Of a stretch of 64,000 bases of DNA, positions 3,075 through 54,204 are shown one piece after another. Each line of letters begins with the position of its first letter. The stretch's first letter is position 1. Source of the stretch: Candidatus Nealsonbacteria bacterium (lineage in GTDB: Bacteria > Patescibacteriota > Minisyncoccia > Minisyncoccales > JAGMDC01); contig JAUWMZ010000005.1 in the NCBI GenBank assembly GCA_030612885.1, positions 19 through 64,018 on the forward strand, written 5' to 3'. The notes beneath the pieces are model-generated. The model was not told where the DNA came from. It did no database searches and worked only from the letters and a program-made list of their open reading frames with translations. Both the position numbers and the translations under genes were made by a program.

Positions 3075-3121
3075 AATGGAGTAAAATGGGGTCAACTCTA
3101 TTTTTAACAGAGAGAAATTTA

Positions 3122-3143
3122 CAGAGACAGTTCTCTGTTTTTT
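3122..3143 (+). terminator. Rho-independent terminator-like hairpin
   Basis: cagaga-cagt-tctctg followed by T6. Same ttacagag...ctctgtttttt design as 2176-2199. Confidence 0.55.
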
Positions 3144-3184
3144 CTTTTAAAATAAGGGTATTTAAGATATAGCAAATCAGAGAT

Positions 3185-3214
3185 TTGATATATCAGACTA
3201 AAGTCTGTTATAAT
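3185..3214 (+). promoter_or_regulatory. Promoter-like palindromic element TTGATATATCAGACTAAAGTCTGTTATAAT (ligA)
   Basis: TTGATA (3185-3190), 18-nt spacer holding the hairpin cagac-taaa-gtctg, then TATAAT (3209-3214). ATG 3221 lies 6 nt after the -10 box. An identical 30-mer is at 56540-56569. Confidence 0.5.
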
Positions 3215-3220
3215 TTAATT

Positions 3221-5224
3221 ATGGACAAGAAACAGACAAAAGAAAGGATTAAAAAATTAAAAAAAGTGATACAGGAAGCAAGACACAGTTATCATGTTTT
3301 AGATAAATCAATAATGTCAGATGCGGCTTTGGATTCGTTGAAGCACGAACTTTATGAATTGGAGCAGAAATATCCTGAATTTATCACTGCTGATTCTCCA
3401 AGCCAGAGGATAGGCGGAAAGCCCTTGGAGAAATTTAAAAAACTTCGCCACATTGTTTCTCAATGGTCGTTTAATGATGTTTTTGATGAAAGCGAAATAA
3501 AGAACTTTGATCAAAGAATGGCAAGAGAGATTGGCAATAAAGAAGTTGATTACACTGCTGAACTGAAAATTGACGGCATGCATATTATTTTAACCTATGA
3601 AAAAGGGGTATTCAAAACTGGAGCAACCAGAGGCGATGGAAAAATAGGCGAGGATGTTACACAGAATCTGAAAACCATTGAATCAATTCCCCTGCGCTTA
3701 AAAAAGGCTCTTGATATTGTTGTTGAAGGAGAGATTTTTATGAGAAAATCAGTTTTTAATAAGTTAAATAAAAAGAGAAAAAGATTAAATCAGCCATTAT
3801 TTGCCAATCCCAGAAATGCGGCAGCTGGCGCAATTCGCCAGCTTAATCCCATGATTGCTGCTGAACGTCAACTTGACTGCTTTATTTATGATTATTCCTG
3901 GCCGGAAAAAAACATTCCTCTTAGCCAGTTTGAAGAATTAAAAAGATTAAAAGAACTGGGTTTTAAAGTAAATAAAAAATTTCATTATTGCCAGAACATA
4001 GACAAAGTAATTGAATTCTGGAAAGATTGGCAGAAAAAAAAGGATTCAGAGGATTATTGGGTTGATGGAATTGTGGTTAAAGTAAATAAGCGGGAATATC
4101 AAAATATGCTGGGCTATACTGGTAAAGCGCCCAGATGGGCGATTGCTTTCAAATGGCCCGGAGAGCAGGCAACAACAGCCTTGGAAAAAGTAGTTTTTCA
4201 GGTTGGCAGAACTGGAAAAATAACACCAGTGGCTTGGCTCAAACCAGTTAATATCAAAGGAACAATTGTTTCCAGGGCAACCCTGCATAACGCTGATGAA
4301 ATTAAGCGACTGGGAGTGAAGATAAAAGACACTGTCATTGTTGAAAAAGCTGGTGATGTTATCCCTCATATTATTAGATTTATTCCAGAGCTAAGGCCAA
4401 AAAACGCCAAAGAAATTCAAACACCCGGTGTTTGTCCTATTTGCGGCTCAAAAGTGATAAGAATAAAAGGAGAAGTGGCTCATTATTGTTCAAATAAAAA
4501 ATGCGGAGCCAGACAAAAGAATAAGCTCTCTTGGTTCGTTTCTAAAAAGGCGTTTGACATTGAAGGCTTAGGACCAAAAATTATTAACCAGCTAATGGAC
4601 GAAGGCCTGATTTCTAAGGCCTCTGATATTTTTTCCTTAAAACAAGGCGATTTAGAATCCTTGGAAAGATTTGCTGAAAAGTCATCTTTTAATTTAATAA
4701 GCGCGATTGAAAAGAGCAAGGCAATAACATTGCCGAAATTTATTATCTCTTTGGGAATTAAATATATTGGAGAAGAAACTGCTGAACTATTGGCTGAAAA
4801 AATAACAGATATTAAAAAAATACCCCAAGAAAATTTAGAACAAATTAAAGGCATAGGTCCAAAGGCAGCAAACAGTATTAAGCATTGGTTTTCACAAAAA
4901 GAAAATATTGATTTATTAAAAGAACTGGAAAAAGCAGGCATCAGAATAAAAAAAGAAAAGCTTGCCCCGCATCGTCCAAGCGAAGCGAGGACTGGTGCAG
5001 GGTTGAAAGATAAAATATTTGTTTTCACTGGAGAAATGGAATCAATATCCAGGGAAAAAGGAAAAGAAAAAGTAAAAGCGTTAGGAGGAAAAACCCATAA
5101 TTCAATAAGCAAAAATACTGATTTTCTGGTTTTAGGCCAAAATCCTGGCTCTAAGTATGAAAAAGCAAAGAATTTAGGAATAAAAATAATTTCTGAAAAA
5201 GAATTTTTAGACATTATTAAATGA
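3221..5224 (+). CDS. ligA: NAD-dependent DNA ligase LigA
   Basis: Adenylation motif ELKIDG, OB fold, Zn finger CPICGS...C..KKC, HhH repeats and a C-terminal BRCT (KIFVFTGEM...LGGK). Start moved from TTG 3185 to ATG 3221 because 3185-3214 is a promoter-like repeat. Confidence 0.95.
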   Translation: MDKKQTKERIKKLKKVIQEARHSYHVLDKSIMSDAALDSLKHELYELEQKYPEFITADSPSQRIGGKPLEKFKKLRHIVSQWSFNDVFDESEIKNFDQRMAREIGNKEVDYTAELKIDGMHIILTYEKGVFKTGATRGDGKIGEDVTQNLKTIESIPLRLKKALDIVVEGEIFMRKSVFNKLNKKRKRLNQPLFANPRNAAAGAIRQLNPMIAAERQLDCFIYDYSWPEKNIPLSQFEELKRLKELGFKVNKKFHYCQNIDKVIEFWKDWQKKKDSEDYWVDGIVVKVNKREYQNMLGYTGKAPRWAIAFKWPGEQATTALEKVVFQVGRTGKITPVAWLKPVNIKGTIVSRATLHNADEIKRLGVKIKDTVIVEKAGDVIPHIIRFIPELRPKNAKEIQTPGVCPICGSKVIRIKGEVAHYCSNKKCGARQKNKLSWFVSKKAFDIEGLGPKIINQLMDEGLISKASDIFSLKQGDLESLERFAEKSSFNLISAIEKSKAITLPKFIISLGIKYIGEETAELLAEKITDIKKIPQENLEQIKGIGPKAANSIKHWFSQKENIDLLKELEKAGIRIKKEKLAPHRPSEARTGAGLKDKIFVFTGEMESISREKGKEKVKALGGKTHNSISKNTDFLVLGQNPGSKYEKAKNLGIKIISEKEFLDIIK

Positions 5225-14013: not shown

Positions 14014-16182
14014 CTATTCCAGATGGATTCTTTCTCTAAATTCCTTTAATCGCTCTTCTAAAAAAGAGTGATTTTTTAATTCCGGGTCTTGTTCTAATAA
14101 TTCTTTAGCTGCTTGTCTTGTTTTTTCTATTAAAAACACATCTTTTAGCGAATCCATTATCATATCCGGAATACCCCATTGTCTGGCGCCGGAAAAATCG
14201 CCCGGTCCTCTGATTTTTAAGTCCTTTTCAGCTAATTCAAAACCATTTTCAGAAGAAATAAGGGCTTTTAACCGTTGATGAGTTCTCTTGGCCGGTGAAT
14301 CAGTAAATAAAAAACACCAGGACTGAAATTTTGACCTGCCGACTCTTCCGCGAAATTGATGAAGCTGGGCCAATCCAAATCTTTCTGCTCCCTCTATAAC
14401 CATTACTGTTGCATTAGGGACATCAATACCAACTTCAATTACTGATGTGGAAACCAAAATATCTATTTTTCTGTTTTTAAAGCCAATCATTATCTTTTCT
14501 TTTTCTTTTGGCCTCATTTTTCCGTGGAGCATTTCAAGTTTTAATTTTGGAAAAACTTCTTTTGATAATCTTTCATATTCTTCTTTTACTGATTTTACTT
14601 CGGTCCAACTAGAAATTTTATTTTTTGTGATTTCAGATTTTCCAGATTCAATTCTGGGATAAATTACAAAAATCTGTCTTCCTTTTTTAACCTCTTTTTT
14701 TATAAATCCATAGGCCTTTTTTCTATTCGCTGGCGCAATAACTTTAGTAATTATTTTTTTTCTTCCTTTCGGCAGTTCATCAATTAAAGATAAATCCAGG
14801 TCGCCGTAAATAGTTAAAGCCAAACTTCGGGGGATAGGCGTGGCAGTCATAGAAAGCAAATGGGGAATGAGGGACAGTCCCTCCCCTGTCCCTCCCCTGT
14901 CCCTCATTAGATGAGCTCGTTGCTCTACTCCAAATCTATGCTGTTCATCTAAAATTACCAAAGCTAAATTTCCAAATTTTACTTTGTCCTGAATCAGAGC
15001 GTGAGTGCCGATTAAAATATTAATATCACCCTTAATTGTTTTTTCCAGTAATTTAGCTCGGGAGATTTCTATTGTTTCACCTTTTAATTTCTTTGAGATA
15101 AATTTATCTTCTTTTCCGGTTAAAAATCCTATATTGATATTAAAATCTTTGAATCGGGAACTTACTTCTTTAAAATGCTGTTTGGCTAAAATTTCAGTTG
15201 GAGCCATAAAAGCAACTTGATAACCAGCTTTTATAGTTTCCAGGGCAGCCATCAAAGCAACTACAGTTTTTCCAGAGCCAACATCTCCTTCTAAAAGCCG
15301 GTTCATTGGCCGGGGTTTCTCTAAATCTTTTAAAATCTGCCAGCTTGATTTTCTTTGGGCGTCAGTTAATTTAAAAGAGAGAGTTTTTAGAAATTTTTTA
15401 ACTAATTCAATATCCATAGGAATAACTCTTGCTTTTTCTTTATTCAATGCCATTCTTGCTCGTAAGACTGCCAATTCAATCAAAAACAGTTCTTCAAAAG
15501 AAAATCGTTTTTGCGCTCTTTCAGCTAAATTTATTGAATCAGGAAAATGAATCTGCCAAATGGCTTTTTCTATAGTTAAAAGTTTGTTTTCTTTGATGAT
15601 TTTTTGAGGCAGAATTTCTGGTATTTTATTTCTGAAGTTTATTAAAAGCGGCTTAATAATATATCGCAGCCATCGCGAAGATAATCGTTCGGTTTCAGGA
15701 TAAACTGGCACAATTCTGCCGGTATGAGTAAAGTTAATCATTGATAATTTATCATTTATCATTGGAAGTTTCTCATAAACTGGATTGGACAGATACAGTC
15801 CATCATCTCCCGTAACTGCTTTTCCAGCTAAACAAACATTATCTTTTATTTTTAAAGTTTTTGTTAAATAGGGTTGGTTGAACCAAACAACTTTTATAGC
15901 GCCAGTTTTATCCTGAACTATTGCCTTAGTTAAAAACATTCTTCTTTTCCATGTTCTGCTGTTTTTAATTTCTAATATTTTTCCCAAGATGCAATAGTTT
16001 TCGTTTATTTTTACTTTTGAGATAGGAACAATATTAGAAAAATCCTCATAACGATGAGGAAAATGATATAAAATGTCCCGGATTGTTTTAATTCCTAATT
16101 TCTTTAGTTTTTTCTGAAAAACCGGCCCAATTCTGGGTATTTGTTCAATCGGAGTTGATAAGTTCATTGCCATTGTCTTCAT
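14014..16182 (-). CDS. recG: ATP-dependent DNA helicase RecG
   Basis: Wedge/OB N-terminus, then helicase motifs GDVGSGKT, DEQHRFGV, MTATPIPRS and QLHQFRGRVGR. Confidence 0.9.
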   Translation of the reverse strand: MKTMAMNLSTPIEQIPRIGPVFQKKLKKLGIKTIRDILYHFPHRYEDFSNIVPISKVKINENYCILGKILEIKNSRTWKRRMFLTKAIVQDKTGAIKVVWFNQPYLTKTLKIKDNVCLAGKAVTGDDGLYLSNPVYEKLPMINDKLSMINFTHTGRIVPVYPETERLSSRWLRYIIKPLLINFRNKIPEILPQKIIKENKLLTIEKAIWQIHFPDSINLAERAQKRFSFEELFLIELAVLRARMALNKEKARVIPMDIELVKKFLKTLSFKLTDAQRKSSWQILKDLEKPRPMNRLLEGDVGSGKTVVALMAALETIKAGYQVAFMAPTEILAKQHFKEVSSRFKDFNINIGFLTGKEDKFISKKLKGETIEISRAKLLEKTIKGDINILIGTHALIQDKVKFGNLALVILDEQHRFGVEQRAHLMRDRGGTGEGLSLIPHLLSMTATPIPRSLALTIYGDLDLSLIDELPKGRKKIITKVIAPANRKKAYGFIKKEVKKGRQIFVIYPRIESGKSEITKNKISSWTEVKSVKEEYERLSKEVFPKLKLEMLHGKMRPKEKEKIMIGFKNRKIDILVSTSVIEVGIDVPNATVMVIEGAERFGLAQLHQFRGRVGRSKFQSWCFLFTDSPAKRTHQRLKALISSENGFELAEKDLKIRGPGDFSGARQWGIPDMIMDSLKDVFLIEKTRQAAKELLEQDPELKNHSFLEERLKEFRERIHLE

Positions 16183-16242: not shown

Positions 16243-17022
16243 GTGTTTATGAAAGAGCACAAAAAAATGAGGAACAATAAATTTTATGTGATTTTCACTG
16301 ATTTGGACGGAACTCTGCTTGATGATAATTATTCCTATAAAGATGCCTTGCCGGTTTTGAGGGTTTTAAATAAAAGAAAAATACCTCTGGTTTTCTGCTC
16401 TGCTAAAACAAAAGCAGAACAGGAATTTTTTCAAAAAAAGATGGAGATAAACCATCCTTTTATTGTTGAAAACGGTTCAGCCATCTATATTCCCAATAAA
16501 TATTTTAAAAGAGAAAAAGGAAAGAAAAAAAGTAATTATAGAATAATTGTTTTAGATAATAAATCTGATAAAATAAGAAAAGAAATTAAAAGGCTTCAAA
16601 AAAAATATAAGATAAAAGCCTTTTATGATATATCTGAAAAAGAGATTTCCAAAATAACAGGGCTTGATTTCAAAAAATCAGGATTGGCGAAACTGGCAAA
16701 GGATAGGGAATTTGGAGAAACAATAGTAGAGGCAGACAAGGAAGCATTAAAAGAATTAAAAAAGAAATTCAATGTTGTTAGCGGAGGCAGATTTATTCAG
16801 GTTTTTGGCAAAAAAGCAGATAAAGGAAAAGCAGTCAGGATATTAACTGAAATGTATAAAAAAGAGTTTAGAAAAGTAATAACCATAGGAATAGGAAATT
16901 CTGAAAACGATAAGCCAATGTTAAAAAATGTAGATGTGCCTGTTCTTCTTAAGGATGGTCCCAGAGAATGGGCGGAATTTATCCAGCACCTTTTCGAATA
17001 TCCACCGTTTGGAGTGAAGTAA
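16243..17022 (+). CDS. HAD-IIB phosphatase, mannosyl-3-phosphoglycerate phosphatase family
   Basis: FTDLDGTLLD, CSAKT and GIGNSENDKPML motifs. Neighbours a GH38 mannosidase gene. Confidence 0.6.
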   Translation: MFMKEHKKMRNNKFYVIFTDLDGTLLDDNYSYKDALPVLRVLNKRKIPLVFCSAKTKAEQEFFQKKMEINHPFIVENGSAIYIPNKYFKREKGKKKSNYRIIVLDNKSDKIRKEIKRLQKKYKIKAFYDISEKEISKITGLDFKKSGLAKLAKDREFGETIVEADKEALKELKKKFNVVSGGRFIQVFGKKADKGKAVRILTEMYKKEFRKVITIGIGNSENDKPMLKNVDVPVLLKDGPREWAEFIQHLFEYPPFGVK

Positions 17023-17075
17023 AAAAATACCCTTCCGAAAAGGTGCTGGATTTATTAAGAGTTTTGTTTTAAAAT

Positions 17076-40551: not shown

Positions 40552-42105
40552 TTATTTTAAGCTTTTAACCATATAGGTATTTTTTAATCGGTAGCCCAGT
40601 TTGCGAAAGTATTCCCTAGTTCCTACACCTGAGATTACAGCGACTTTAGGCAAAGCAAATTCTCTTTTAGTGATTTTTTCTGCTTCTTTGATAAGTTTTT
40701 TGCCTAATCCTTTATGCTGGGCGCCTAAAGTTTTTTGGGAGATTGGTATCATCTGGCCAAAAGTGTGAAGTTCCCTGATAATAGTCGCATTTTTTAAAGC
40801 TCGTAAACGGAGCAAGCTGTATAATTTTGTTCTGTTTTTATTTTCAAAACTTAAAAATATTTCTTTAGCACTAGACGCATTATAATCTTCACGAAATAAG
40901 ACTATTTTTTCTTTTGGATCGTATTTTTCTTTTACTTCTCTACATCTGACACAATGGCAAGCCATTCCTCTTTTCTTCATTTCTTTTTGAACTACCTGTC
41001 TTAAATTAGAAATTTTACTGCCAGATTCAATATGATAAGCTGGTATGTCCCTGAATAATCGGGCTACCCTAACCCAATACGGTAAAATCTCTTTTATTTT
41101 TACTAAAAGATTGATTAATTTTTTATCTGAATATGACTTATATTTTCCTTGTTTCCAAAGACGATAAAGTTTTGTGTTTTTACAAACAACACAGGGATAA
41201 ATTTTTAACCAGTCCGGCTTGAAATCCGGATTCTTAAAAATTTCTTTGAGACATTGAAAATCCTTTCTTAGATTAGAGCCGGGCAAATTCGGCATTACTT
41301 GATACATTATTTTAAACCCAGCCTCTTTTAAAAGTTTTGTTGTTTCTATTGTTTCTTTCACAAAATGCCCTCTCTGGCATTTTTTTAAAATGTCATCGTA
41401 TATGGTCTGCACTCCTAATTCAACCATTGTTATTCCTAATTCTCTCAAGTTTATAATTTCCTTCTTATCAATCAAATCAGGCCTGGTTTCAATAGAAATT
41501 CCCACGATTCTATGCTTAGCTCTTTCATTTTTCTTTTGCTCTTTTTCTAAAGATTTAATTTTTCGCGTTGTTTTGCGTTGTTCTGCATTACACGCTGCGA
41601 AGCAGCATGTAATAAACCATTCTTGGTATTTCTCTGGATAGGCAGTCCAGCTTCCACCGATTATCCTCAATTCAATTTTATCTGTGGGATGGCCTTGAAT
41701 TTCTAAACTTTTAATTCTATCTATGGTTTGAAGATATGGATCAAATTTAGCTCTTTTTGCTCTTTCCACTGCCGGTTCTCCAGAAAGATAGCTTTTGGGC
41801 AGGCCTTTTTCAGTTGGACAGTAAATGCATTTTCCCGGACAGGGATAGGGCTTGGTTAAAACCGAGACCACTACTACTCCGGATAGGCTCCTAATTTTTC
41901 TTTTTCTTAAAATCTCTTCTAAGATTTTGTTTCTTTTGAGTCCTTTATCTTTTACTAAATTATGGTATGATTTTAGTAAATCAATATTAGAAGGGCAGGA
42001 AATTTTATATTTTTTTGCTGTTTTTCTTTTTATCATTGCCAAATCTTCCAAAGTTTCAGATTTGTTTTTTAATAGTTCTTTGATTATTAGTTCATTGATA
42101 TTCAT
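40552..42105 (-). CDS. Elp3-family radical SAM + GNAT enzyme (tRNA U34 modification type)
   Basis: Radical SAM Cys cluster PCPGKCIYCP, ELGVQT, C-terminal GNAT HKGLGKKLI. Start set at MNINELII (42105) because the longer ORF runs through tRNA-Arg. Confidence 0.8.
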   Translation of the reverse strand: MNINELIIKELLKNKSETLEDLAMIKRKTAKKYKISCPSNIDLLKSYHNLVKDKGLKRNKILEEILRKRKIRSLSGVVVVSVLTKPYPCPGKCIYCPTEKGLPKSYLSGEPAVERAKRAKFDPYLQTIDRIKSLEIQGHPTDKIELRIIGGSWTAYPEKYQEWFITCCFAACNAEQRKTTRKIKSLEKEQKKNERAKHRIVGISIETRPDLIDKKEIINLRELGITMVELGVQTIYDDILKKCQRGHFVKETIETTKLLKEAGFKIMYQVMPNLPGSNLRKDFQCLKEIFKNPDFKPDWLKIYPCVVCKNTKLYRLWKQGKYKSYSDKKLINLLVKIKEILPYWVRVARLFRDIPAYHIESGSKISNLRQVVQKEMKKRGMACHCVRCREVKEKYDPKEKIVLFREDYNASSAKEIFLSFENKNRTKLYSLLRLRALKNATIIRELHTFGQMIPISQKTLGAQHKGLGKKLIKEAEKITKREFALPKVAVISGVGTREYFRKLGYRLKNTYMVKSLK

Positions 42106-44975: not shown

Positions 44976-46097
44976 ATGCGAAATTTTCTAAAAGCTTTAG
45001 CTGTCTTTGTGGGAACTATAATCGGAGTAGGAATTTTTGGCTTGCCTTATGTTGCTTCAAAGGCAGGTTTTTTTGTGATTGTCTTATATTTTTTGTTTAT
45101 TACTGGAATTGCTATTGCCATTCATCTTATTTATGGAAAAATTTGTTTAGAAACAAAAGGAGTCCACCGCCTTCCCGGATATGTAGAACAATATCTCGGA
45201 AATGGTTGGAAAAAAATTGCAATCTTACTTACTGGATTTGCCATTACTGGCGCTTCTCTGGCTTATTTAATTGTTGGCGGAGAATTTTTAAAGTTTCTTT
45301 TTGCTCCAGCTTTTGGAGGAAGTGCCTTAATTTATACTTTGCTCTTTTTTTGTCTCGGCGCTTATCTGATTTTTAGAGGGATTAAAAGTATATCTCAAGT
45401 TGAAATTTCTTTTTTATTTGTCTTTTTTACTATTTTAATTATATTTTTCCTGAAAGCCTTTTCTTCTTTTAATATGGCATATTTAACTATGATGGACTGG
45501 AAATTTTTTGCTTTTCCTTATGGAGTTATTCTTTTTTCTCTATGCGGTTCAGCAATAGTGCCTGAACTTAAGGAAATACTTGGTAATGATAAGAAAAAAT
45601 TAAAAAAAGTCATAATTTCAGGGATTTTAATTGCTGCTGTTTGTTATCTATTTTTTGTGTTTATTATTCTTGGGACTTGCGGGCAAAATACCTCAAAAGA
45701 AGCAATGTCTGGTTTTTCATTAAGTTTGGGCAATAGTATTATTGGATTGGGTTTTATATTCGGAATAATTGCTTGCTTTACTTCTTTTCTTACTTTAGGT
45801 TTAACCTTGAAAAAGTCATTATGGTATGATTTCGGTTTATCTAAAAATTTTTCTTGGTTTATTGCTTGTTTTTTACCTCTACTTTTGTTTTTAGCAGGTA
45901 TGCGTGAATTTATTGATATTATTGGTATTACTGGCGCTTTAGCTATTGGGGGTGAAGGAGTAATTATTATTTTTCTTTATAGAGCTTTTTTGAAAAAGAA
46001 ATTTTCTCAAAAAATGAATCCTTTATTATACTTTTTGCCAATATTTTTTATTATAGGAATCGGACTTCAGATTTTTTACTTTGTATTTACAAAATGA
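44976..46097 (+). CDS. Amino-acid permease-like transporter (about 11 TM)
   Basis: 373 aa polytopic protein with a GVGIFGLPY motif, typical of aromatic/neutral amino-acid transporter families. Confidence 0.5.
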   Translation: MRNFLKALAVFVGTIIGVGIFGLPYVASKAGFFVIVLYFLFITGIAIAIHLIYGKICLETKGVHRLPGYVEQYLGNGWKKIAILLTGFAITGASLAYLIVGGEFLKFLFAPAFGGSALIYTLLFFCLGAYLIFRGIKSISQVEISFLFVFFTILIIFFLKAFSSFNMAYLTMMDWKFFAFPYGVILFSLCGSAIVPELKEILGNDKKKLKKVIISGILIAAVCYLFFVFIILGTCGQNTSKEAMSGFSLSLGNSIIGLGFIFGIIACFTSFLTLGLTLKKSLWYDFGLSKNFSWFIACFLPLLLFLAGMREFIDIIGITGALAIGGEGVIIIFLYRAFLKKKFSQKMNPLLYFLPIFFIIGIGLQIFYFVFTK

Positions 46098-46152
46098 ACT
46101 ACCACGCCCGCCAGCTGGCGGAGCGGGGTATTCCCGCCGCCGAAATAATCTT

Positions 46153-47460
46153 ATGAAATTTATTACTGATTTTCACATTCATTCCAAATATTCGAGAGCG
46201 ACCAGTCCTAAGACGGATTTGGAAAATTTAGACAAATGGGCGAAAATTAAAGGAATTCAAGTTTTAGGCACTGGAGATTTCACCCACCCGGAATGGTTTA
46301 AAGAACTAAAAGAAAAATTGGAACCAGTGGAAGATGGACTTTTTAAATTAAAATCAACGAGAACGGTTCTCGTTGAAACTACAAGATTTGTTTTAACAAG
46401 TGAAATTAGTTGTATTTATTCAAAAGGAGGCAGGGTTAGAAAAGTTCATATTATAGTTTTTGCTCCTTCTTTTGAGGTTGTTGAGAAAATCAATACTCAA
46501 TTAGGCTGGATTGGCAACCTAAAATCAGACGGACGGCCAATTTTAGGCTTAGATTCAAAAGAATTAGCCAAGATTGTTTTGAATATTTCAAAAGATTGCT
46601 TGATTGTGCCTGCACATTGTATGACTCCTTGGTTTGGCATTTTCGGTTCAAAATCAGGGTTTGATTCTATTGAAGAATGCTTTGAGAATTATTCTAAATA
46701 TATTTATGCAATAGAAAGTGGTTTAAGCGCAGACCCTGCAATGCTTTGGCGAATACCTGATGGCCGAAATCTTACCATAATCTCAAATAGCGATGCCCAT
46801 AGTCCAGCCAAGCTTGGCAGAGAAGCAAATGTTTTTGAGGGAGATGAATTGAGCTATAATTCAATAATTAATGCAATTAAGAATGAGCGAGGACGGATTT
46901 CGCCCATTATTGGGCGAAGTCCGTCCTCGCCTGGCTCTCTGAGTTTGATTTACACAATTGAATTTCATCCTGAAGAAGGTAAATACCATTATGACGGCCA
47001 TAGAAATTGCGGAATCAGTTTATCGCCATTAGAGTCAAAAAAATATAATAATATTTGTCCTCATTGCGGCAAGCCCCTGACTATTGGAGTTTTAAATCGA
47101 GTAGAAGAGTTAGCAGATAAGCCAGAGGGATTTAGACCAGAAGGAGCTATTCCTTTTAAAAGTTTAGTTCCCTTAGAAGAAATAATTGCTGAAAGTTTAG
47201 GCTGCAACACAGGAACAAAACGGGTAGAGGCGGAGTATAAAAATCTAATTGAAAAATTTGGTCAGGAGTTTAAAATTCTATTGGATATTTCCAAAACAGA
47301 TTTAGAATCAGCAACTTTGTCAGAAATCGCTGAAGGAATTATGCGAGTAAGAGAAGGAAAAGTTTATGTTGAGCCGGGCTTTGACGGCGTTTTTGGCAAA
47401 GTAAGAATTTTTTCAAAAGCAGAACAAAGAAAATTACCAAACCAAAAAACCCTATTTTAA
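46153..47460 (+). CDS. PHP-domain protein of the endonuclease Q (TIGR00375) type
   Basis: MKFITDFHIHSKYSRA, GTGDFTHPEW, C-terminal Zn ribbon CPHCGKPLTIGVLNRVEELAD. Start set at ATG 46153 because the upstream 24 codons are a GC-rich palindromic spacer. Confidence 0.6.
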   Translation: MKFITDFHIHSKYSRATSPKTDLENLDKWAKIKGIQVLGTGDFTHPEWFKELKEKLEPVEDGLFKLKSTRTVLVETTRFVLTSEISCIYSKGGRVRKVHIIVFAPSFEVVEKINTQLGWIGNLKSDGRPILGLDSKELAKIVLNISKDCLIVPAHCMTPWFGIFGSKSGFDSIEECFENYSKYIYAIESGLSADPAMLWRIPDGRNLTIISNSDAHSPAKLGREANVFEGDELSYNSIINAIKNERGRISPIIGRSPSSPGSLSLIYTIEFHPEEGKYHYDGHRNCGISLSPLESKKYNNICPHCGKPLTIGVLNRVEELADKPEGFRPEGAIPFKSLVPLEEIIAESLGCNTGTKRVEAEYKNLIEKFGQEFKILLDISKTDLESATLSEIAEGIMRVREGKVYVEPGFDGVFGKVRIFSKAEQRKLPNQKTLF

Positions 47461-49433: not shown

Positions 49434-50462
49434 ATGATAACTTATTCAAAAGCCGGGGTTAATAGAAAAATAAGAGATAAGGCAAAAAAATCTTTAAAGA
49501 GTTTTGAGTTAACTTACAAATTAAGTAAATATGGAAAGATAATCAAGACTTCTTTTAATGTTCTTTATCCAATTGGAAATAATAGATATCAAGTGAAGAC
49601 CTGTGACGGAGTGGGAACAAAAGTTCTTTTAGCTGAATGGATTAATAAACATGATACTATTGGCCAAGATGCTGTGGCTATGGTGGCAAATGATTGTATA
49701 AGATGCGGAGCAGAACCAATAGCTATCACAGATGTGATTGATATTAAAAAGTCAGAGCCGAAAATATTAAGAGAGATTCAGAAAGGATTGATTATCGGGT
49801 CTAAAGAAGCAAATTGTCCTTTAATAGGAGGAGAGACAGCCGATGTGTCAGAACTTTTAAATACTTTTTACCATATCAATTGTGATTGCGTTGGAGAAGT
49901 AGAGAAAAAAGATATAATCATTGGAGAGAGAATAAAACCCGGCAATATTATAATTGGCTTTCAAAGTTCCGGGATTCATTCTAACGGCTTAACTTTATTA
50001 AGAAAGGTTCTTTTTAAAAGATGGGGCGGTAAATTTAATGCTTTTGACAAGCCGAAAGGTTTTAAAAGAGAATTAATTTTTGAGTGCCTTGAACCAACAA
50101 AAATTTATGTTAAACCATTTTTAGAGATTGCCAAAAGATTTGAGATTCTTGGTGCTGTTCATATCACTGGCGATGCTTATTTAAAATTTAAAAAATTAAA
50201 TAAGAAAGTTGGCTTTGAGTTTAATAATTTTAAACCTCAGCCGATTTTTAATTTAATCCAAGAAACAGGAAAAATTAGTTCAAAAGAGATGTTTAGAACC
50301 TTTAATATGGGCTGGGGGTTTGCTATCTTTGTTAAAGATAAAGACAAAAATAAAATTTTGGATTTATTAAAAAGAAAAAAACAGAGAGCCGAGGTAATTG
50401 GAAAAGTAATCAAAGAAAAACAAATTATAATTAGATATAAAAACAGAAAGATAATTTTATAA
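49434..50462 (+). CDS. purM: Phosphoribosylformylglycinamidine cyclo-ligase (AIR synthase, PurM-like)
   Basis: YSKAGVN, DGVGTKVLLA, IGQDAVAMVANDCIRCGAEP, IGGETAD, SSGIHSNGLTLLRK. Confidence 0.7.
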   Translation: MITYSKAGVNRKIRDKAKKSLKSFELTYKLSKYGKIIKTSFNVLYPIGNNRYQVKTCDGVGTKVLLAEWINKHDTIGQDAVAMVANDCIRCGAEPIAITDVIDIKKSEPKILREIQKGLIIGSKEANCPLIGGETADVSELLNTFYHINCDCVGEVEKKDIIIGERIKPGNIIIGFQSSGIHSNGLTLLRKVLFKRWGGKFNAFDKPKGFKRELIFECLEPTKIYVKPFLEIAKRFEILGAVHITGDAYLKFKKLNKKVGFEFNNFKPQPIFNLIQETGKISSKEMFRTFNMGWGFAIFVKDKDKNKILDLLKRKKQRAEVIGKVIKEKQIIIRYKNRKIIL

Positions 50463-50612
50463 ATAGATTGACAGATTTGTAAAAATAATTAAGGTGAGAT
50501 TAAAGGACAATGAAGTCCGAAAGACCAAGTCCTTTAACAAAAAAACAAAAAGGCGGATTTTTTTTGATTAGAGATTTCTATTTTTTATCATTTGTGATAA
50601 AATTAAAATAAT

Positions 50613-51395
50613 ATGAAAGAAGGAAAGTTCTATATCGGAACAAGCGGGTGGGTATACTCTCATTGGGAAGGTATTTTTTATCCTGAAGATTTATCAGGGA
50701 AGGATAAATTAAAATATTTTTCAGAGCATTTTAAGACCGCGGAAGTAAATTATTCTTTTTACCATTTGCCAAAACCAATCACTTATCAAAATTGGTATAA
50801 ACAGACCCACAAAGATTTTATATTCAGTGTCAAAGCCAGTCGTTTTATTACTCATATTAAACGACTAAAGGAAGTAAAAGACCCCTGGAAAACTTTTTTA
50901 GAAAATGCTCTAAATCTTAAAGAAAAACTTGGTCCTATTTTATTCCAATTTCCCCCAAACTTTTCTGCTACCGAAGAAAATATAAAAAGATTACAAGATT
51001 TTTTGATATTAGCAGAAACCCGAGACCCGACCTCGGGATTGCAATCCCGAGGTCGGGTCTCGGTCAGATTCGCTTTTGAATTTCGGCATCAATCTTGGTG
51101 CGACTCCAAAATTTATGGATTGCTAAAAAAATACAAAGTTGCTTGGGTAATTGCTGATTCACCTTCCTTTCCAAAAGCCGAAGAAATTACTGCTGACTTT
51201 ATCTATATCAGAATGCATGGCTCAAAATTTTTGTTTTTTTCAAAATATACAGACGAAGAATTAAAAGGTTTAGCTCAAAAAATCAAAAAATGGCGAAAAG
51301 AAAACAAAGATGTTTATATTTATTTCAATAATGATGCAATGGGTAATGCTATTGAAAATGCCAAAACATTAATAAAATTTTGTGCAAGAGGTTGA
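50613..51395 (+). CDS. DUF72 family protein
   Basis: IGTSGWVYSHWEG.FYP, YF...F.T.EVN.SFY, QFPP.F, EFRH.SW, Y.Y(F)NND. Contains a perfect 19-bp hairpin in frame. Confidence 0.8.
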   Translation: MKEGKFYIGTSGWVYSHWEGIFYPEDLSGKDKLKYFSEHFKTAEVNYSFYHLPKPITYQNWYKQTHKDFIFSVKASRFITHIKRLKEVKDPWKTFLENALNLKEKLGPILFQFPPNFSATEENIKRLQDFLILAETRDPTSGLQSRGRVSVRFAFEFRHQSWCDSKIYGLLKKYKVAWVIADSPSFPKAEEITADFIYIRMHGSKFLFFSKYTDEELKGLAQKIKKWRKENKDVYIYFNNDAMGNAIENAKTLIKFCARG

Positions 51396-51593
51396 CCCCG
51401 CACCTTTTCATGACTGACTTCGTCAAATTGTGCAAAGCACAGTCATAAAAAGGTGCGGGGTTGACAAAGATTCTTGATGTATTAGTATCTAAAACAGAGG
51501 TGAGGATGGAGGACCTCTACCATTCCCAATTAAATAGGGGAATAAGGAAAAGAAAGATATGTTGGAAAAAAATAGGAGGTGAAAAGAAAAAAA

Positions 51594-52184
51594 ATGGAAA
51601 AAAAGATTGGAATTCTTTTGATTAGTGCAATTGTTGCAATATTGTTAGTCGCAAGCGGAAGCGCTTTGATGGGGTTCTGGGATTCAGCAAGAATTGAGGA
51701 TAACGAAGTAACGTTTGGAGAAGTGGATATAAACGAAACTGTTACAGTCCCATTCTACGTAGATGGATTAGTCCCTGGAGAAAATAAAACAGGCAATATG
51801 TCATTCTCTGTAGACGCTGATACTGAATTTAATGTATCAGTTGACATTTCAGCGATTACTGACCCAGAAAACGGGGAGAACAGCGGTGAACTCCTGGCGG
51901 GCGATTTGAAAGATACTGATATTTTCGGTGATGCTTATGATGGATACGGAGAAGCTGATAACATCGCAGAAGTGGTATTCAAAGTTAACGGAGAAATCGT
52001 CTATTCAGGAACAGGCGTAACAGCTGGCCATTTATTTGATGCTGGTCCATATAGTCCAGGGGAGAGCGTAGAGATAGAGACAATTTTGACTTGCCCATAT
52101 AACGAAATAGCTAATGTTGGCCAAACAGATTCTTTCAAGTGGGACTTTGAGATACTTGTTTATCAACCGCCACCGGAGGAGTAG
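51594..52184 (+). CDS. TasA/camelysin-like secreted protein with SipW-type signal peptide
   Basis: Signal anchor then GFWDSARIEDNEVTFGEVDI (compare the FSD.E.S.GN.F.AG.LD class). PGENKTGNMSF and the C-terminal NVGQTDSFKWDFEILVYQ resemble TasA-family strands. ATG 51594 follows AGGAGGTG. Confidence 0.5.
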   Translation: MEKKIGILLISAIVAILLVASGSALMGFWDSARIEDNEVTFGEVDINETVTVPFYVDGLVPGENKTGNMSFSVDADTEFNVSVDISAITDPENGENSGELLAGDLKDTDIFGDAYDGYGEADNIAEVVFKVNGEIVYSGTGVTAGHLFDAGPYSPGESVEIETILTCPYNEIANVGQTDSFKWDFEILVYQPPPEE

Positions 52185-52307
52185 AGTAATAGCAAATATA
52201 TCTAAAAAAATAAAAGTAAGATGGGAATTTTTTCCCTTCTTTTTTTTGGTATTGACAATATTTTATCAATAATGTAATCTCTAAAATAGAGAGAAAGGAG
52301 GTAAAAA

Positions 52308-52766
52308 ATGAAAAGAAAAGGAATTTTGCTGGCAGTGATGATAGCAACAATGATAGGATTGTCATTTTCGGGCATGGCATTGGAAGGACTTTGGGACTCA
52401 ATGACTATTGAAGACAACGAGGTAATATGCGGTGAGTGGGACAATATCAAAGGAGGAGCTATAGGCAATCAGACAATCGATAAGAATAGTGAGATAAATG
52501 AGACCTGCGATAATGTAAACAATTCAGTAGATAATAATAGTATAGCTGGACAGATAAACCAGACAGAAATGAATGAGACCATAAGCAAAGAGAACATTAA
52601 CAACGAAACACATAATATCATAGACAATCAGACAATAAGTAATGCAACAGTAGATTCTATAGAAGATGAAATTGAAAAGATTGATAACGAGACAAGCGAG
52701 GTATTGATAAATAAAATAGGAGGTGAAAGGAATGACAGCAACCAAAAACCAGAAAATTGTGATTGA
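52308..52766 (+). CDS. Secreted Asn-rich protein with the same SipW-type N-terminus
   Basis: GLWDSMTIEDNEVICGEWD after a signal anchor. The remainder is N/E/T-rich with at least 8 N-x-S/T sequons. Confidence 0.4.
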   Translation: MKRKGILLAVMIATMIGLSFSGMALEGLWDSMTIEDNEVICGEWDNIKGGAIGNQTIDKNSEINETCDNVNNSVDNNSIAGQINQTEMNETISKENINNETHNIIDNQTISNATVDSIEDEIEKIDNETSEVLINKIGGERNDSNQKPENCD

Positions 52767-53448
52767 AACAGCATCAGTTATAGCAGGAATTACAATATTT
52801 ATAGCCGTTTTATCTCTGATGATTTTTCCGTCAGAGGTATCAGAAGTGCCGCCGTCAGAAGAATTAGTGATAACACCGATAATAGATTCGTTAACACCGA
52901 CACCCACACCTACACCATCGCCGACACCTGCAGTTTCAGTATCACCGACTCCAACTCCAATTCCAATTCCAATACCAAGCCCAGCTTTATTTTACTGGGG
53001 AACTGGAGGAGGTGGAGGAGGTTATCGAGCACCGCGAATACCACCAGAGGAATTGACAGGATTGCAAATTTGCGATGCTAATGGTGAGAACTGTACAGAG
53101 AAAAGTTTTGATTCATTGATTAAAGCAAAAAACATATGCCCTGGTTATGAAGAAGAAGCAGTTTTTCAGTTAAAAAACGATAATAACAAAGATGGTACGA
53201 TTTATGTATATATCGATGAAGGTCTAAACAATTCAGAATGCGGCAAGTATATATATCTTGAATTTTTCTTTGATAACAAGAGCGTGGTAACGAATATAGC
53301 TGATTTGACAGAACCAGTAAAGATGCAAGAAATAAGAAAAGGGGAATTGTTGCTAATAAAGACGAAGTGGAATGTAAGTTGGGATTCAGGAAATGAGCTG
53401 CAAGGGGCAGGTATTGGTAAATTTCCGATTTGTTTCGGACTGTTATAA
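52732..53448 (+). CDS. Membrane-anchored protein with Pro/Thr linker, G6 run and TasA-like C-terminal domain
   Basis: ATG 52732 after AGGAGGTG. One TM helix, PTPTPTPSPTPAVSVSPTPTPIPIPIPSP, GGGGGG, then PGYEEEAVFQLKN...GNELQGAGIGKFPICF. Confidence 0.4.
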   Translation: MTATKNQKIVIETASVIAGITIFIAVLSLMIFPSEVSEVPPSEELVITPIIDSLTPTPTPTPSPTPAVSVSPTPTPIPIPIPSPALFYWGTGGGGGGYRAPRIPPEELTGLQICDANGENCTEKSFDSLIKAKNICPGYEEEAVFQLKNDNNKDGTIYVYIDEGLNNSECGKYIYLEFFFDNKSVVTNIADLTEPVKMQEIRKGELLLIKTKWNVSWDSGNELQGAGIGKFPICFGLL

Positions 53449-53466
53449 AAATAAATAAACAAAAAT

Positions 53467-53491
53467 AGAGGATTTTAATCCTCTCTTTTTT
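53467..53491 (+). terminator. Rho-independent terminator-like hairpin
   Basis: agaggatt-tt-aatcctct followed by cT6. Confidence 0.55.
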
Positions 53492-53562
53492 ATTTATTTT
53501 TTAGTAGAGATGGGATATAATAACATATAACACATAATAACATTTTATTTAAAGATTGCTCT

Positions 53563-54204
53563 ATGTTTCAATCCATTAACAAAGTCATCAAAATTTTAAT
53601 TTTCTCTGATGTCTTACTTTTAACTGGTTTTGGTTTTTTCCAACCAATTTTTGCTATTTTTATTGTTGACAGGGTCCAAGGAGGAAACATTGAGATAGCT
53701 GGCTTTGCTATGGCTGTTTATTGGCTCACAAAATCCATTGTTCAAATTCCTTTTGGCAGATATTTAGATAAAAATCACGGAGAGAAAGATGACTTACTTT
53801 TTATAATACTTGGTTTTGGATTAGTGAGTATTGCGGCTTTTTCTTTTATTTTCGTTTCTCTCCCTTGGCATATTTATTTTCTTGAAGCGCTCTACGGCAT
53901 AGGCATAGCTATGAATGTGGCTGGTTGGGGAGCTACTTTTACCCGACATATTGACAAAGGCATGGAAGCATTTGAATGGAGCACTCGAAGTACTTTGGTG
54001 GGTATAGGAGCTGGTATAGCTGGCGCTTTAGGCGGAGTCATTGCTCATCAGTTTGGATTTACAGTATTATTTATTGGGGTAGGAACTTTCGCTTTAGCTG
54101 GGGCGCTTTTGCCGATTTTAATTTGGAAAGATGTCTTTCCAAAGAAGAAAATAGCTTTTAAAGTTCCGAAAATAAAGGCCGTTACTTATTCATCGAAAGA
54201 TTAG
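53563..54204 (+). CDS. Half-size MFS-like membrane protein (6 TM)
   Basis: 213 aa. The loop GRYLDKNHGEKD resembles the MFS motif A (G...D+.G.+). Only one six-helix bundle is present. Confidence 0.45.
   Translation: MFQSINKVIKILIFSDVLLLTGFGFFQPIFAIFIVDRVQGGNIEIAGFAMAVYWLTKSIVQIPFGRYLDKNHGEKDDLLFIILGFGLVSIAAFSFIFVSLPWHIYFLEALYGIGIAMNVAGWGATFTRHIDKGMEAFEWSTRSTLVGIGAGIAGALGGVIAHQFGFTVLFIGVGTFALAGALLPILIWKDVFPKKKIAFKVPKIKAVTYSSKD

Follow-up and report, generated by a model that had tools for sequence, protein, structure and literature searches.

A perfect 44-bp palindrome translated within a DUF72 gene of a Nealsonbacteria genome is probably a REPIN-like repeat associated with RAYT-like transposases

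How does a perfect 44-bp palindrome come to lie inside an intact, translated gene? The question is raised by a DUF72 gene in a 64,000-nucleotide stretch (hereafter, the window) of contig JAUWMZ010000005.1 from a Candidatus Nealsonbacteria bacterium, which carries such a palindrome at 51020-51063. The palindrome is probably a REPIN-like doublet of repetitive extragenic palindromic (REP) units that was spread by a Y1 transposase resembling the REP-associated tyrosine transposases (RAYTs) and landed in frame in a tolerant loop. REP/RAYT systems have been studied nearly exclusively in Proteobacteria, as extragenic DNA. REPINs are inverted REP doublets that form hairpins and are more conserved than singlets, and they are thought to derive from REPs that once flanked an ancestral element (PMC3116915); RAYT genes have inverted REPs on both sides (PMC2817692). 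In-frame intragenic REP singlets and dimers, which add 20-30 residues and often lie in replication or repair genes, have been reported from several phyla (Di Nocera et al. 2013, PMC3733652). No description of REPs or RAYTs in Patescibacteria/candidate phyla radiation (CPR) bacteria was found in the literature, the coverage of which was incomplete and does not prove that none exists.

The palindrome and its host gene comprise the following features (L numbers here and below denote loci other than the window).

50613-51395, + strand: host gene, an intact DUF72 (YecE-like) open reading frame (ORF) of 260 aa (Pfam PF01904, E = 1.5e-72)
51020-51063, no strand: REPIN-like REP doublet (our interpretation), a perfect 44-bp palindrome translated in frame, from palindrome, shuffle, and folding analyses
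51020-51036, + strand: left REP unit CCGAG-A-CCCGA-C-CTCGG with a CCCGA-type loop; the exact 17-mer also occurs in the L136 array
51037-51046, no strand: 10-nt self-complementary spacer GATTGCAATC, the part that varies among orthologues (L081 has GATTACAATC)
51047-51063, + strand: right REP unit CCGAG-G-TCGGG-T-CTCGG with a TCGGG-type loop, the unit kept in singlet orthologues

The window sequence at 51020-51063 is CCGAGACCCGACCTCGGGATTGCAATCCCGAGGTCGGGTCTCGG. The initial annotation described it as a hairpin with the arms ccgagacccgacctcggga and tcccgaggtcgggtctcgg around ttgcaa; that sequence was confirmed, and the palindrome turned out to be slightly stronger. Because the central TTGCAA is itself self-complementary, the whole 44-mer is its own reverse complement (22+22 nt, zero spacer). 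Its GC content is 68%, compared with 33% for the window. The 44-mer was predicted to fold into a 20-bp stem with a 4-nt loop, at -43.3 kcal/mol as RNA and -28.1 kcal/mol as DNA (z = -9.0 against 200 shuffles). A perfect 22+22 palindrome is expected by chance ~4e-8 times per 64 kb at window composition, and the palindrome arm was absent from all shuffles (0/100). None of the six reading frames of the 44-mer contains a stop codon. Each arm is a small hairpin unit in its own right, CCGAG-ACCCGAC-CTCGG, and related units elsewhere have stems of 8-12 bp and a loop of 5 nt. Each arm thus has the form of a REP, a short GC-rich stem-loop, and the two inverted units fold together as those of a REPIN do.

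Unlike a classical REP, which is extragenic, the palindrome is embedded in the DUF72 ORF and translated with it. The ORF and its PF01904 match agree with the initial description of an in-frame palindrome near the FEFRHQSW motif. Its translation with the adjoining residues is T-RDPTSGLQSRGRVS-V (136-151), the palindrome itself encoding residues 137-150 (RDPTSGLQSRGRVS), and this stretch lies four residues ahead of FEFRHQSW. In the AlphaFold2 model of the protein (mean predicted local distance difference test score (pLDDT) 81, predicted template modelling score 0.83), the insert forms a coil between the helix at 121-136 and the strand at 153-157, with pLDDT below 50 at residues 139-148. According to this model, the palindrome peptide is a disordered, permissive surface loop of DUF72. 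The best protein matches came from Candidatus Parcubacteria and the Patescibacteria group, which places the window in a CPR bacterium; a look-up of the exact DUF72 protein returned no record.

In an alignment of 40 close orthologues, the stretch from FLKLI to LRYAFEFRH accommodated between ~0 and ~30 extra residues. The shortest form of the loop, ITKNKL, was found in 245-aa orthologues, and distant DUF72 proteins likewise have the short form. The initial annotation had raised the possibility of an insertion, and short-loop orthologues (FLKLITKNKLRYAFEFRH; L214) do lack the segment. Judged from this alignment, the palindrome segment is an insertion in a hypervariable DUF72 loop. A genome-contig scan with the DUF72 alignment gave chiefly distant phyla and a small number of close relatives, of which only L001 and L002 were useful. 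The state of the site in the window and in orthologues (P numbers in brackets) was as follows.

Window: doublet; perfect 44-mer, arm positions 1-17 being CCGAGACCCGACCTCGG
L081 (P0001, 84% nucleotide identity): doublet; as in the window save for one arm mismatch and one central change
L084 (P0006, 75% nucleotide identity): doublet; 17-nt arms identical to those of the window, with a different 8-nt spacer, ACAACTGC
L213 (P0014): canonical doublet, AGAGG-CCCGA-CCTC ... GGAGG-TCGGG-CCTCC
L002 (P0009): doublet, GGAGG-CTCGA-CCTCC-AAG-GGAGG-TCGAG-CCTC
L207, L208, and L209: singlet; the right-hand unit without its partner, as CGAAG-TCGGG-TCTCG or decayed
L214 (P0034): empty, no element

The arms of the doublet were identical between the window and L084 at 34/34 positions, whereas DUF72 outside the element showed 75.1% identity (56% at third codon positions). 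At the gene-wide rate, identity at all 34 positions has p ~6e-5. Since the arms are fully identical against 75.1% elsewhere in the gene, conservation acts at the nucleotide level. It had been argued at the outset that protein-level selection alone would not maintain the palindrome; the identical 17-nt arms shared by the window and L084, whose genes are only 75% identical, bear this out, as does the occurrence of the same palindrome in an unrelated gene of the sister genome, described below. The observation named beforehand as contrary to that argument, a homologous peptide without a palindrome, was not encountered, and orthologues with such a peptide have a hairpin unit or a decayed copy of one. 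The singlets in L207-L209 carried at least 2 changes despite 80-84% nucleotide identity of the gene; at the DUF72 site, doublets are more conserved than singlets, as in REPINs. The net length difference at the site was +36 nt relative to L214 and +33 nt relative to L209. Of 116 close orthologues, at least 18 had peptides typical of such units (RGPTS, RGRAS, GGRAS, RGRTS...GGSTS) in this position. Many orthologues (P0005, P0007, P0010, P0011, P0017, P0060, P0062, and P0073) have AT-type inserts before AFEFRH with internally repeated peptides, such inserts including TKYKILNTKYKI, TTHQLINSSTHQL, RADSFAIRVDSRL, and SVNQRLDQRKSAE. These inserts may have arisen from REP doublets by decay, or from palindromes of another kind.

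The unrelated gene is an ELP3-like radical SAM gene. In L081, the closest relative genome to the window, this gene has a 75-nt in-frame insertion carrying the same palindrome, the doublet being accompanied by 20 + 12 nt of extra flanking insert. The window orthologue, 79% identical, has a clean empty site.

40788-40812, - strand: empty site, junction at 40801/40802, in the ELP3-like radical SAM gene (40567-42105, - strand)

L081 and the window thus show a presence/absence polymorphism, in a second gene, of one and the same palindrome. No target-site duplication was found at the L081 insertion. A similarity between the sequences downstream of the two insertions (ATTCGCTTTTG and ATTCTATTTTG) was considered and set aside as coincidental, because in DUF72 that sequence encodes AFEF and this conserved motif is also present in DUF72 orthologues without the element. 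Altogether, L081 holds two doublets and one singlet within 20.8 kb.

Further copies were sought in a scan of metagenome contigs with the arm motif CCGAGNCCCGACCTCGG, of which only the AT-rich loci formed an informative subset. In these loci the motif recurred as isolated singlets (L150, L127, L122, and L106), as tandem arrays with a 26-nt period (L136 and L158), and as inverted doublets, in-frame doublets in other genes being found in QueA (L100) and LigA (L179) as well as in the radical SAM gene of L081. The core of the hairpin family is GAG[G/A]-CCCGA-[C/T]CTC, and that of its partner GAGG-TCGGG-CCTC; in every doublet seen, the CCCGA-unit came before the TCGGG-unit.

Hairpins of this family adjoined Y1/HUH transposase genes in 6/6 Parcubacteria/Patescibacteria loci examined. 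Three of the loci (L136, L162, and L193) were found via the DNA motif; the other three (L210 from groundwater, L211 from Candidatus Staskawiczbacteria, and L212 from the Parcubacteria group) were fetched through protein similarity alone and are therefore unbiased as to the motif. The transposase genes of L136, L162, and L193 are homologous (245-260 aa, mutual identity 57-68%) and flanked by family hairpins. The L162 and L193 proteins matched Pfam PF01797 (Y1_Tnp) at 32-40 bits (cutoff 23), and the L136 protein matched these homologues by tblastn. Beside the gene of L136 lies the tandem array, which includes the exact 17-nt arm of the window (3109-3125). In L210-L212, hairpins with the same core were located ~25-45 nt upstream of the gene and inside it at nt ~193-213, and the downstream hairpin coincided with the stop codon of the gene in both L210 and L211 but was ~580 nt off in L212. 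The density in these three loci was 3-5 hairpins per 20 kb, compared with 0.12-0.16 expected from shuffles; examples are GAGA-CCCGA-TCTC and GTGTGAGA-TCGGG-TCTCACAC in L210, ATAGAGG-CCCGA-CCTCTAT and ATAGAGG-TCGGG-CCTCTAT in L211, and ATCCGTGGAGG-ACGGG-CCTCCACGGAT in L212. In L210, L211, and L193 the upstream unit was of the CCCGA type and the downstream unit of the TCGGG type. This is the order of every doublet seen, as expected if a doublet consists of the two ends of the transposase unit without the gene.

The RAYT-like genes also hold an in-frame REP unit of their own, at a fixed position (~nt 193-213 of the coding sequence), which is translated as RGRAS, RGPTS, or RGGPSS. The in-gene REP could be a self-targeting or autoregulatory site. 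The in-frame units inside these genes are as follows.

L210, 10204-10218: in-frame unit
L211, 10193-10213: in-frame unit
L212, 10193-10213: in-frame unit
L193, 2755-2779: in-frame unit
L136, 3846-3887: in-frame doublet

The sole NCBIfam match of the L136, L162, and L193 proteins was REP_Tyr_transpos (NF047646), at 42-47 bits. A profile of 35 homologues gave E. coli TnpA-REP (4ER8) as its best PDB match (E = 0.021), with an alignment spanning the HUH motif to the Y-x-x-x-NP motif; the second match, ISDra2 TnpA, covered only the HUH segment. As in RAYTs, H93 and H95 of the HUH motif together with Y153, N157, and P158 were invariant in the 35 homologues. The motifs read MPNH(I/V)HLL and Y-I-(H/F)-T-NP, and the (R/K)xG part of NP(L/V)(R/K)xG was absent. 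The family comprises more than 2600 homologues at E <= 1e-10, and those with a named source were all from Patescibacteria, including Parcubacteria and Staskawiczbacteria. By these matches, the transposases are a divergent Y1 (HUH) family whose closest curated relatives are the RAYTs.

The initial annotation named no mechanism; the evidence now points to a REP/REPIN-type repeat tied to RAYT-like transposases. According to the mechanism that we propose, the doublet would consist of two inverted copies of a ~17-nt GC-rich hairpin REP, equivalent to the two ends of a transposase unit joined by the 10-nt spacer. By analogy with E. coli TnpA-REP and IS200/IS605 TnpA, the REP hairpins would form in single-stranded DNA, where a RAYT-like transposase would recognise, cleave, and rejoin them, thereby copying singlets and doublets to further sites. 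In genomes as gene-dense and AT-rich as these, many of the sites would be intragenic, and copies would survive only if their net length were a multiple of three, free of stop codons, and if the extra residues fell in a permissive loop. The window element, which adds ~12 residues to the disordered helix-strand loop of DUF72 and is simply translated, would have been retained because it is stop-free in all frames, has a net length that is a multiple of three, and lies in a permissive loop. The net length differences observed were all multiples of three (+36 and +33 nt in DUF72, +75 nt in the radical SAM gene).

Several observations weigh against this mechanism. The 64-kb window holds only one unambiguous copy of the hairpin family, which does not speak for a high copy number, and 109/126 loci among the matches listed in the metagenome scan were GC-rich contigs with a single arm match, probably due to chance, such contigs accounting for most of the hits to the arm (at least 120). 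The aligned flanks of 20 units showed no conserved GT(A/G)G or CGTC end tag; one GTAG beside the L081 radical-SAM copy did not recur at other units. The transposases remained below the NF047646 RAYT cutoff of 80 bits, and a PDB search with a single transposase sequence gave no match. The flanking REPs were inverted in only 3/6 loci (L210, L211, and L193); both flanking hairpins of L162 had the same orientation, as in IS200, and those of L212 and L136 were mixed. That several lineages have doublets at a single orthologous site could be due to one ancient insertion, or to a singlet having been duplicated locally, and need not mean repeated transposition. Finally, a RAYT-like gene was detected by tblastn neither in the window nor in the 20-kb loci of its closest relatives, L081-L086. 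Because the window has no such gene, we infer the mobilisation of the palindrome by a RAYT-like enzyme of its own genome from the other loci, and the lack of a host function is likewise our inference.

Other origins of the doublet and of its relatives have to be considered. An older singlet in the DUF72 loop may have been copied in inverted orientation by snap-back or template-switch replication, with no transposition of a doublet. This would fit the close orthologues L207-L209 (80-84% nucleotide identity), which have just the right-hand unit in exactly the same place, as well as the window palindrome being perfect through its centre, spacer included, as inverted copying predicts, and the spacers varying among lineages with constant arms. 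However, L084, the most distant orthologue compared (75%), already carries a doublet with identical arms, so that the doublet is more simply taken as ancestral, with the singlets as deletions; moreover, the radical-SAM doublet of L081, with its 20 + 12 nt flanks and an empty site in the window, would need copying to a new site. We consider local copying unlikely. [quoted passage not shown] The Pfam match is indeed to Y1_Tnp ('Transposase IS200 like'), the NCBIfam RAYT cutoff was not reached, the L162 hairpins resemble those of IS200 in being co-oriented and no more than 30 nt from the ends of the gene, and many homologues lie on short contigs, as is often the case with repeated genes. Yet the only NCBIfam match was the RAYT model, no IS200 model appearing at E <= 0.01, and the top PDB match was TnpA-REP, not IS608 or ISDra2 TnpA. 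The flanks of L210, L211, and L193 are inverted, as reported for RAYTs, and the proteins have ~240 aa compared with <150 aa for IS200 TnpA (PMC2817692); in addition, the genes of L210-L212 lie among housekeeping genes.

The hairpin might also be kept for a function of the host at the RNA or DNA level, as an mRNA stabiliser, an RNase III processing site, a ribosome pause, an internal terminator, or a protein-binding cruciform. Its arms are far more conserved at the nucleotide level than the remaining gene, it is very stable, extragenic REPs have been reported in termination and mRNA stabilisation (PMC3733652), and a REP-like singlet at 2176-2199 of the window resembles an intrinsic terminator. 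This explanation is nevertheless very unlikely, because many DUF72 orthologues lack the hairpin entirely, the radical SAM gene, which is unrelated, holds the same sequence, QueA, LigA, and the transposase gene itself hold related doublets, and neither an Rfam match nor a sense-strand terminator tail was found. In Rfam 15, nothing reached the gathering score; the best hit was sRNA41 (34.1 bits, against 45), and the rest were generic miRNA hairpin models far below. An intrinsic terminator was rejected since the 20-bp hairpin is not followed by a T-run on the + (coding) strand, on which a terminator scan flagged only a weak 7-pair stem (51054-51072); the full hairpin was flagged on the - strand, with the tail GTTTCTGCTA. 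A chance origin can practically be dismissed, and so can an artefact of assembly, for instance from a chimeric inverted read. Palindromes can come from library artefacts in general, and nothing more favours this origin; the chance expectation is the ~4e-8 given above, and homologous doublets recur in assemblies made independently, with several pipelines and from several samples (L081, L082, L083; L084, L085, L086).

The REPIN-like doublet shares several traits with classical REP/REPIN-RAYT systems: two short, inverted, GC-rich palindromic units fold into a single long hairpin, a Y1/HUH transposase gene is flanked by such units at other loci, doublets outlast singlets in conservation, and tandem clusters of units lie beside a transposase gene (L136). 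In contrast to classical REPINs, the window element is intragenic and translated, and it is compact (44 nt with a 10-nt spacer, against ~70-110 nt). Two large REP superfamilies bear GTAG or CGTC tags (PMC3733652, PMC2817692), which the window family does not have; it also lacks the GT(A/G)G head of classical REPs. The associated proteins, of ~240 aa, fall below the curated RAYT threshold, and the host belongs to Patescibacteria, not to Proteobacteria as do the classical hosts. Closer in habit are the intragenic REPs (PMC3733652) and the Rickettsia palindromic elements (RPEs), which are in-frame palindromic repeats in apparently functional genes; their dimers add some 10-30 residues, often to DNA replication or repair genes, and the hosts of the window family are DUF72, PHP/MJ0043_C, LigA, ELP3-like radical SAM, and QueA. 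These repeats nonetheless belong to another sequence family (the present one having no GTAG/CGTC tag) and another lineage, RPE-1 is longer (about 100-150 bp), and the transposase gene here holds its own in-frame copy at a fixed position. IS200/IS605 elements and their MITE derivatives have in common with our system a Y1 HUH transposase (PF01797), end hairpins, and short non-autonomous derivatives, but the protein described here has a greater length, it matches RAYTs best among both curated families and structures, its flanks are inverted in half of the loci, and no tnpB was found near its genes. Rho-independent terminators share the GC-rich stem-loop, and some members of the family (2176-2199, the L211 flanks) do precede T-runs; the window element, however, lies in the middle of an ORF without a sense T-tract, and its 20-bp stem is far longer than is typical. 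An intragenic REP dimer or REPIN is thus of an already known kind, and this system departs from the classical one in tag, in compactness, in the subfamily of the protein, and in being intragenic.

If the palindrome is a REPIN-like doublet spread in this manner, the ultra-small genomes of CPR bacteria host a REP/RAYT-like system of their own, the repeats of which persist in genes as translated loops. This would explain GC-rich spikes and odd peptides (RGPTS, RGRAS, EARPR, etc.) in CPR proteins, caution those who annotate genes or predict structures against taking such segments of selfish DNA for functional motifs, and provide markers of strain-level variation. The 17-nt hairpin with its defined 5-nt loop is also a compact natural substrate for the biochemistry of a divergent HUH transposase. 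More speculatively, and in our view less likely than not, Parcubacteria may possess a distinct RAYT-like clade (more than 2600 homologues of ~240 aa) to which a separate REP family belongs (CCCGA/TCGGG, no GTAG tag), and which has a fixed in-frame REP in its own gene that could let the enzyme act on that gene or its transcript; in these gene-dense genomes, this clade may routinely seed singlets and doublets into the loops of housekeeping proteins. Were this so, the clade would be a main source of length-variable loops among CPR orthologues, and the repeats would form a long-lived, vertically inherited population, mostly within coding sequence.

The window contains other palindromes, two of which are listed here.

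46887-46930, no strand: another GC-rich palindrome of 44 nt (20+4+20; each arm with one mismatched position, 95% complementary), lying in frame within the PHP/MJ0043_C gene (ORF 46081-47460, + strand)
2176-2199, + strand: intergenic REP-like singlet CAGAGG-TCCGA-CCTCTG + T7 (terminator-like), downstream of two small ORFs

Compared with L081 and L084, the palindrome at 46887-46930 contributes ~9 additional residues (NERGRISPII). In the same position L081 has a singlet, GGGGGAGG-CCCGG-CCTCCCCC, and L084 a decayed version, which implies a singlet/doublet turnover as in DUF72; the palindrome is possibly a diverged relative of that in DUF72. The hairpin at 2176-2199 has a REP-like core and a terminator-like form, and the transposase-flanking REPs of L211 likewise lie in A-run/T-run contexts. 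Short-query BLASTN found no copy of 51395-51461, 16976-17056, 46887-46930, 46097-46146, 14855-14920, or 4955-5007 in the fetched loci, and their sequences did not place these six palindromes in the same family. Two of them are further GC-rich, hairpin-forming stretches in frame in genes of DNA repair or replication: that at 14855-14920, in a RecG-like helicase (- strand ORF, DEQHRFGV motif), reads AATGAGGGACAG...CTGTCCCTCATT and contains a tandem duplication, and that at 4955-5007 is an imperfect hairpin encoding APHRPSEARTGAG in a LigA-like ORF (3173-5221). The stretch at 46097-46146, between the Trp/Tyr permease and PHP/MJ0043_C genes, is a 50-nt segment (68% GC) that contains the palindrome CCGCCAGCTGGCGG and is absent from L081.

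The inverted repeat at 51395-51461 (22-nt arms, ACCCCGCACCTTTTCATGACTG, 23 nt apart) begins at the DUF72 stop codon and forms the left edge of a 2.1-kb segment (51396-53560) with three ORFs, the products of which look secreted (signal-peptide-like N-termini). This segment is absent from L081, L207, L209, L213, and L214, where the next gene or genes after DUF72 are YjbQ and/or MFS_1; the window takes up MFS_1 again at 53563. A second kind of small palindromic element has ends like CCCC[N]CACC...TTTT. Two examples from L081, neither of them present in the window, are a 296-nt insertion (L081:3393-3688) with 16-nt terminal inverted repeats (CCCCCCACCACTTTTT) and a GIY-YIG mini-ORF, and a 75-nt MITE-like hairpin after smpB (L081:16202-16276). 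The window palindromes at 51395-51461 and 16976-17056 have GCACCTTTTC in common. The purC gene (SAICAR synthase) lies between the AIRS-domain gene and DUF72 in relatives (L081:8227-10001; L207:7519-10001), accompanied by adenylosuccinate lyase in L207. In the window, purC is missing from this interval (50462-50613) and, by tblastn, from the entire 64 kb, and the adenylosuccinate lyase gene is missing from the interval, unlike in L207. In the Staskawiczbacteria locus L211, a perfect 34-nt palindrome, TTTCCGCCAAAGGCGGATCCGCCTTTGGCGGAAA, lies in the isoleucyl-tRNA synthetase gene (4721-4754). It is a doublet of TCCGCC-AAA-GGCGGA units and has the same 'palindrome of hairpins' design in a different sequence family.

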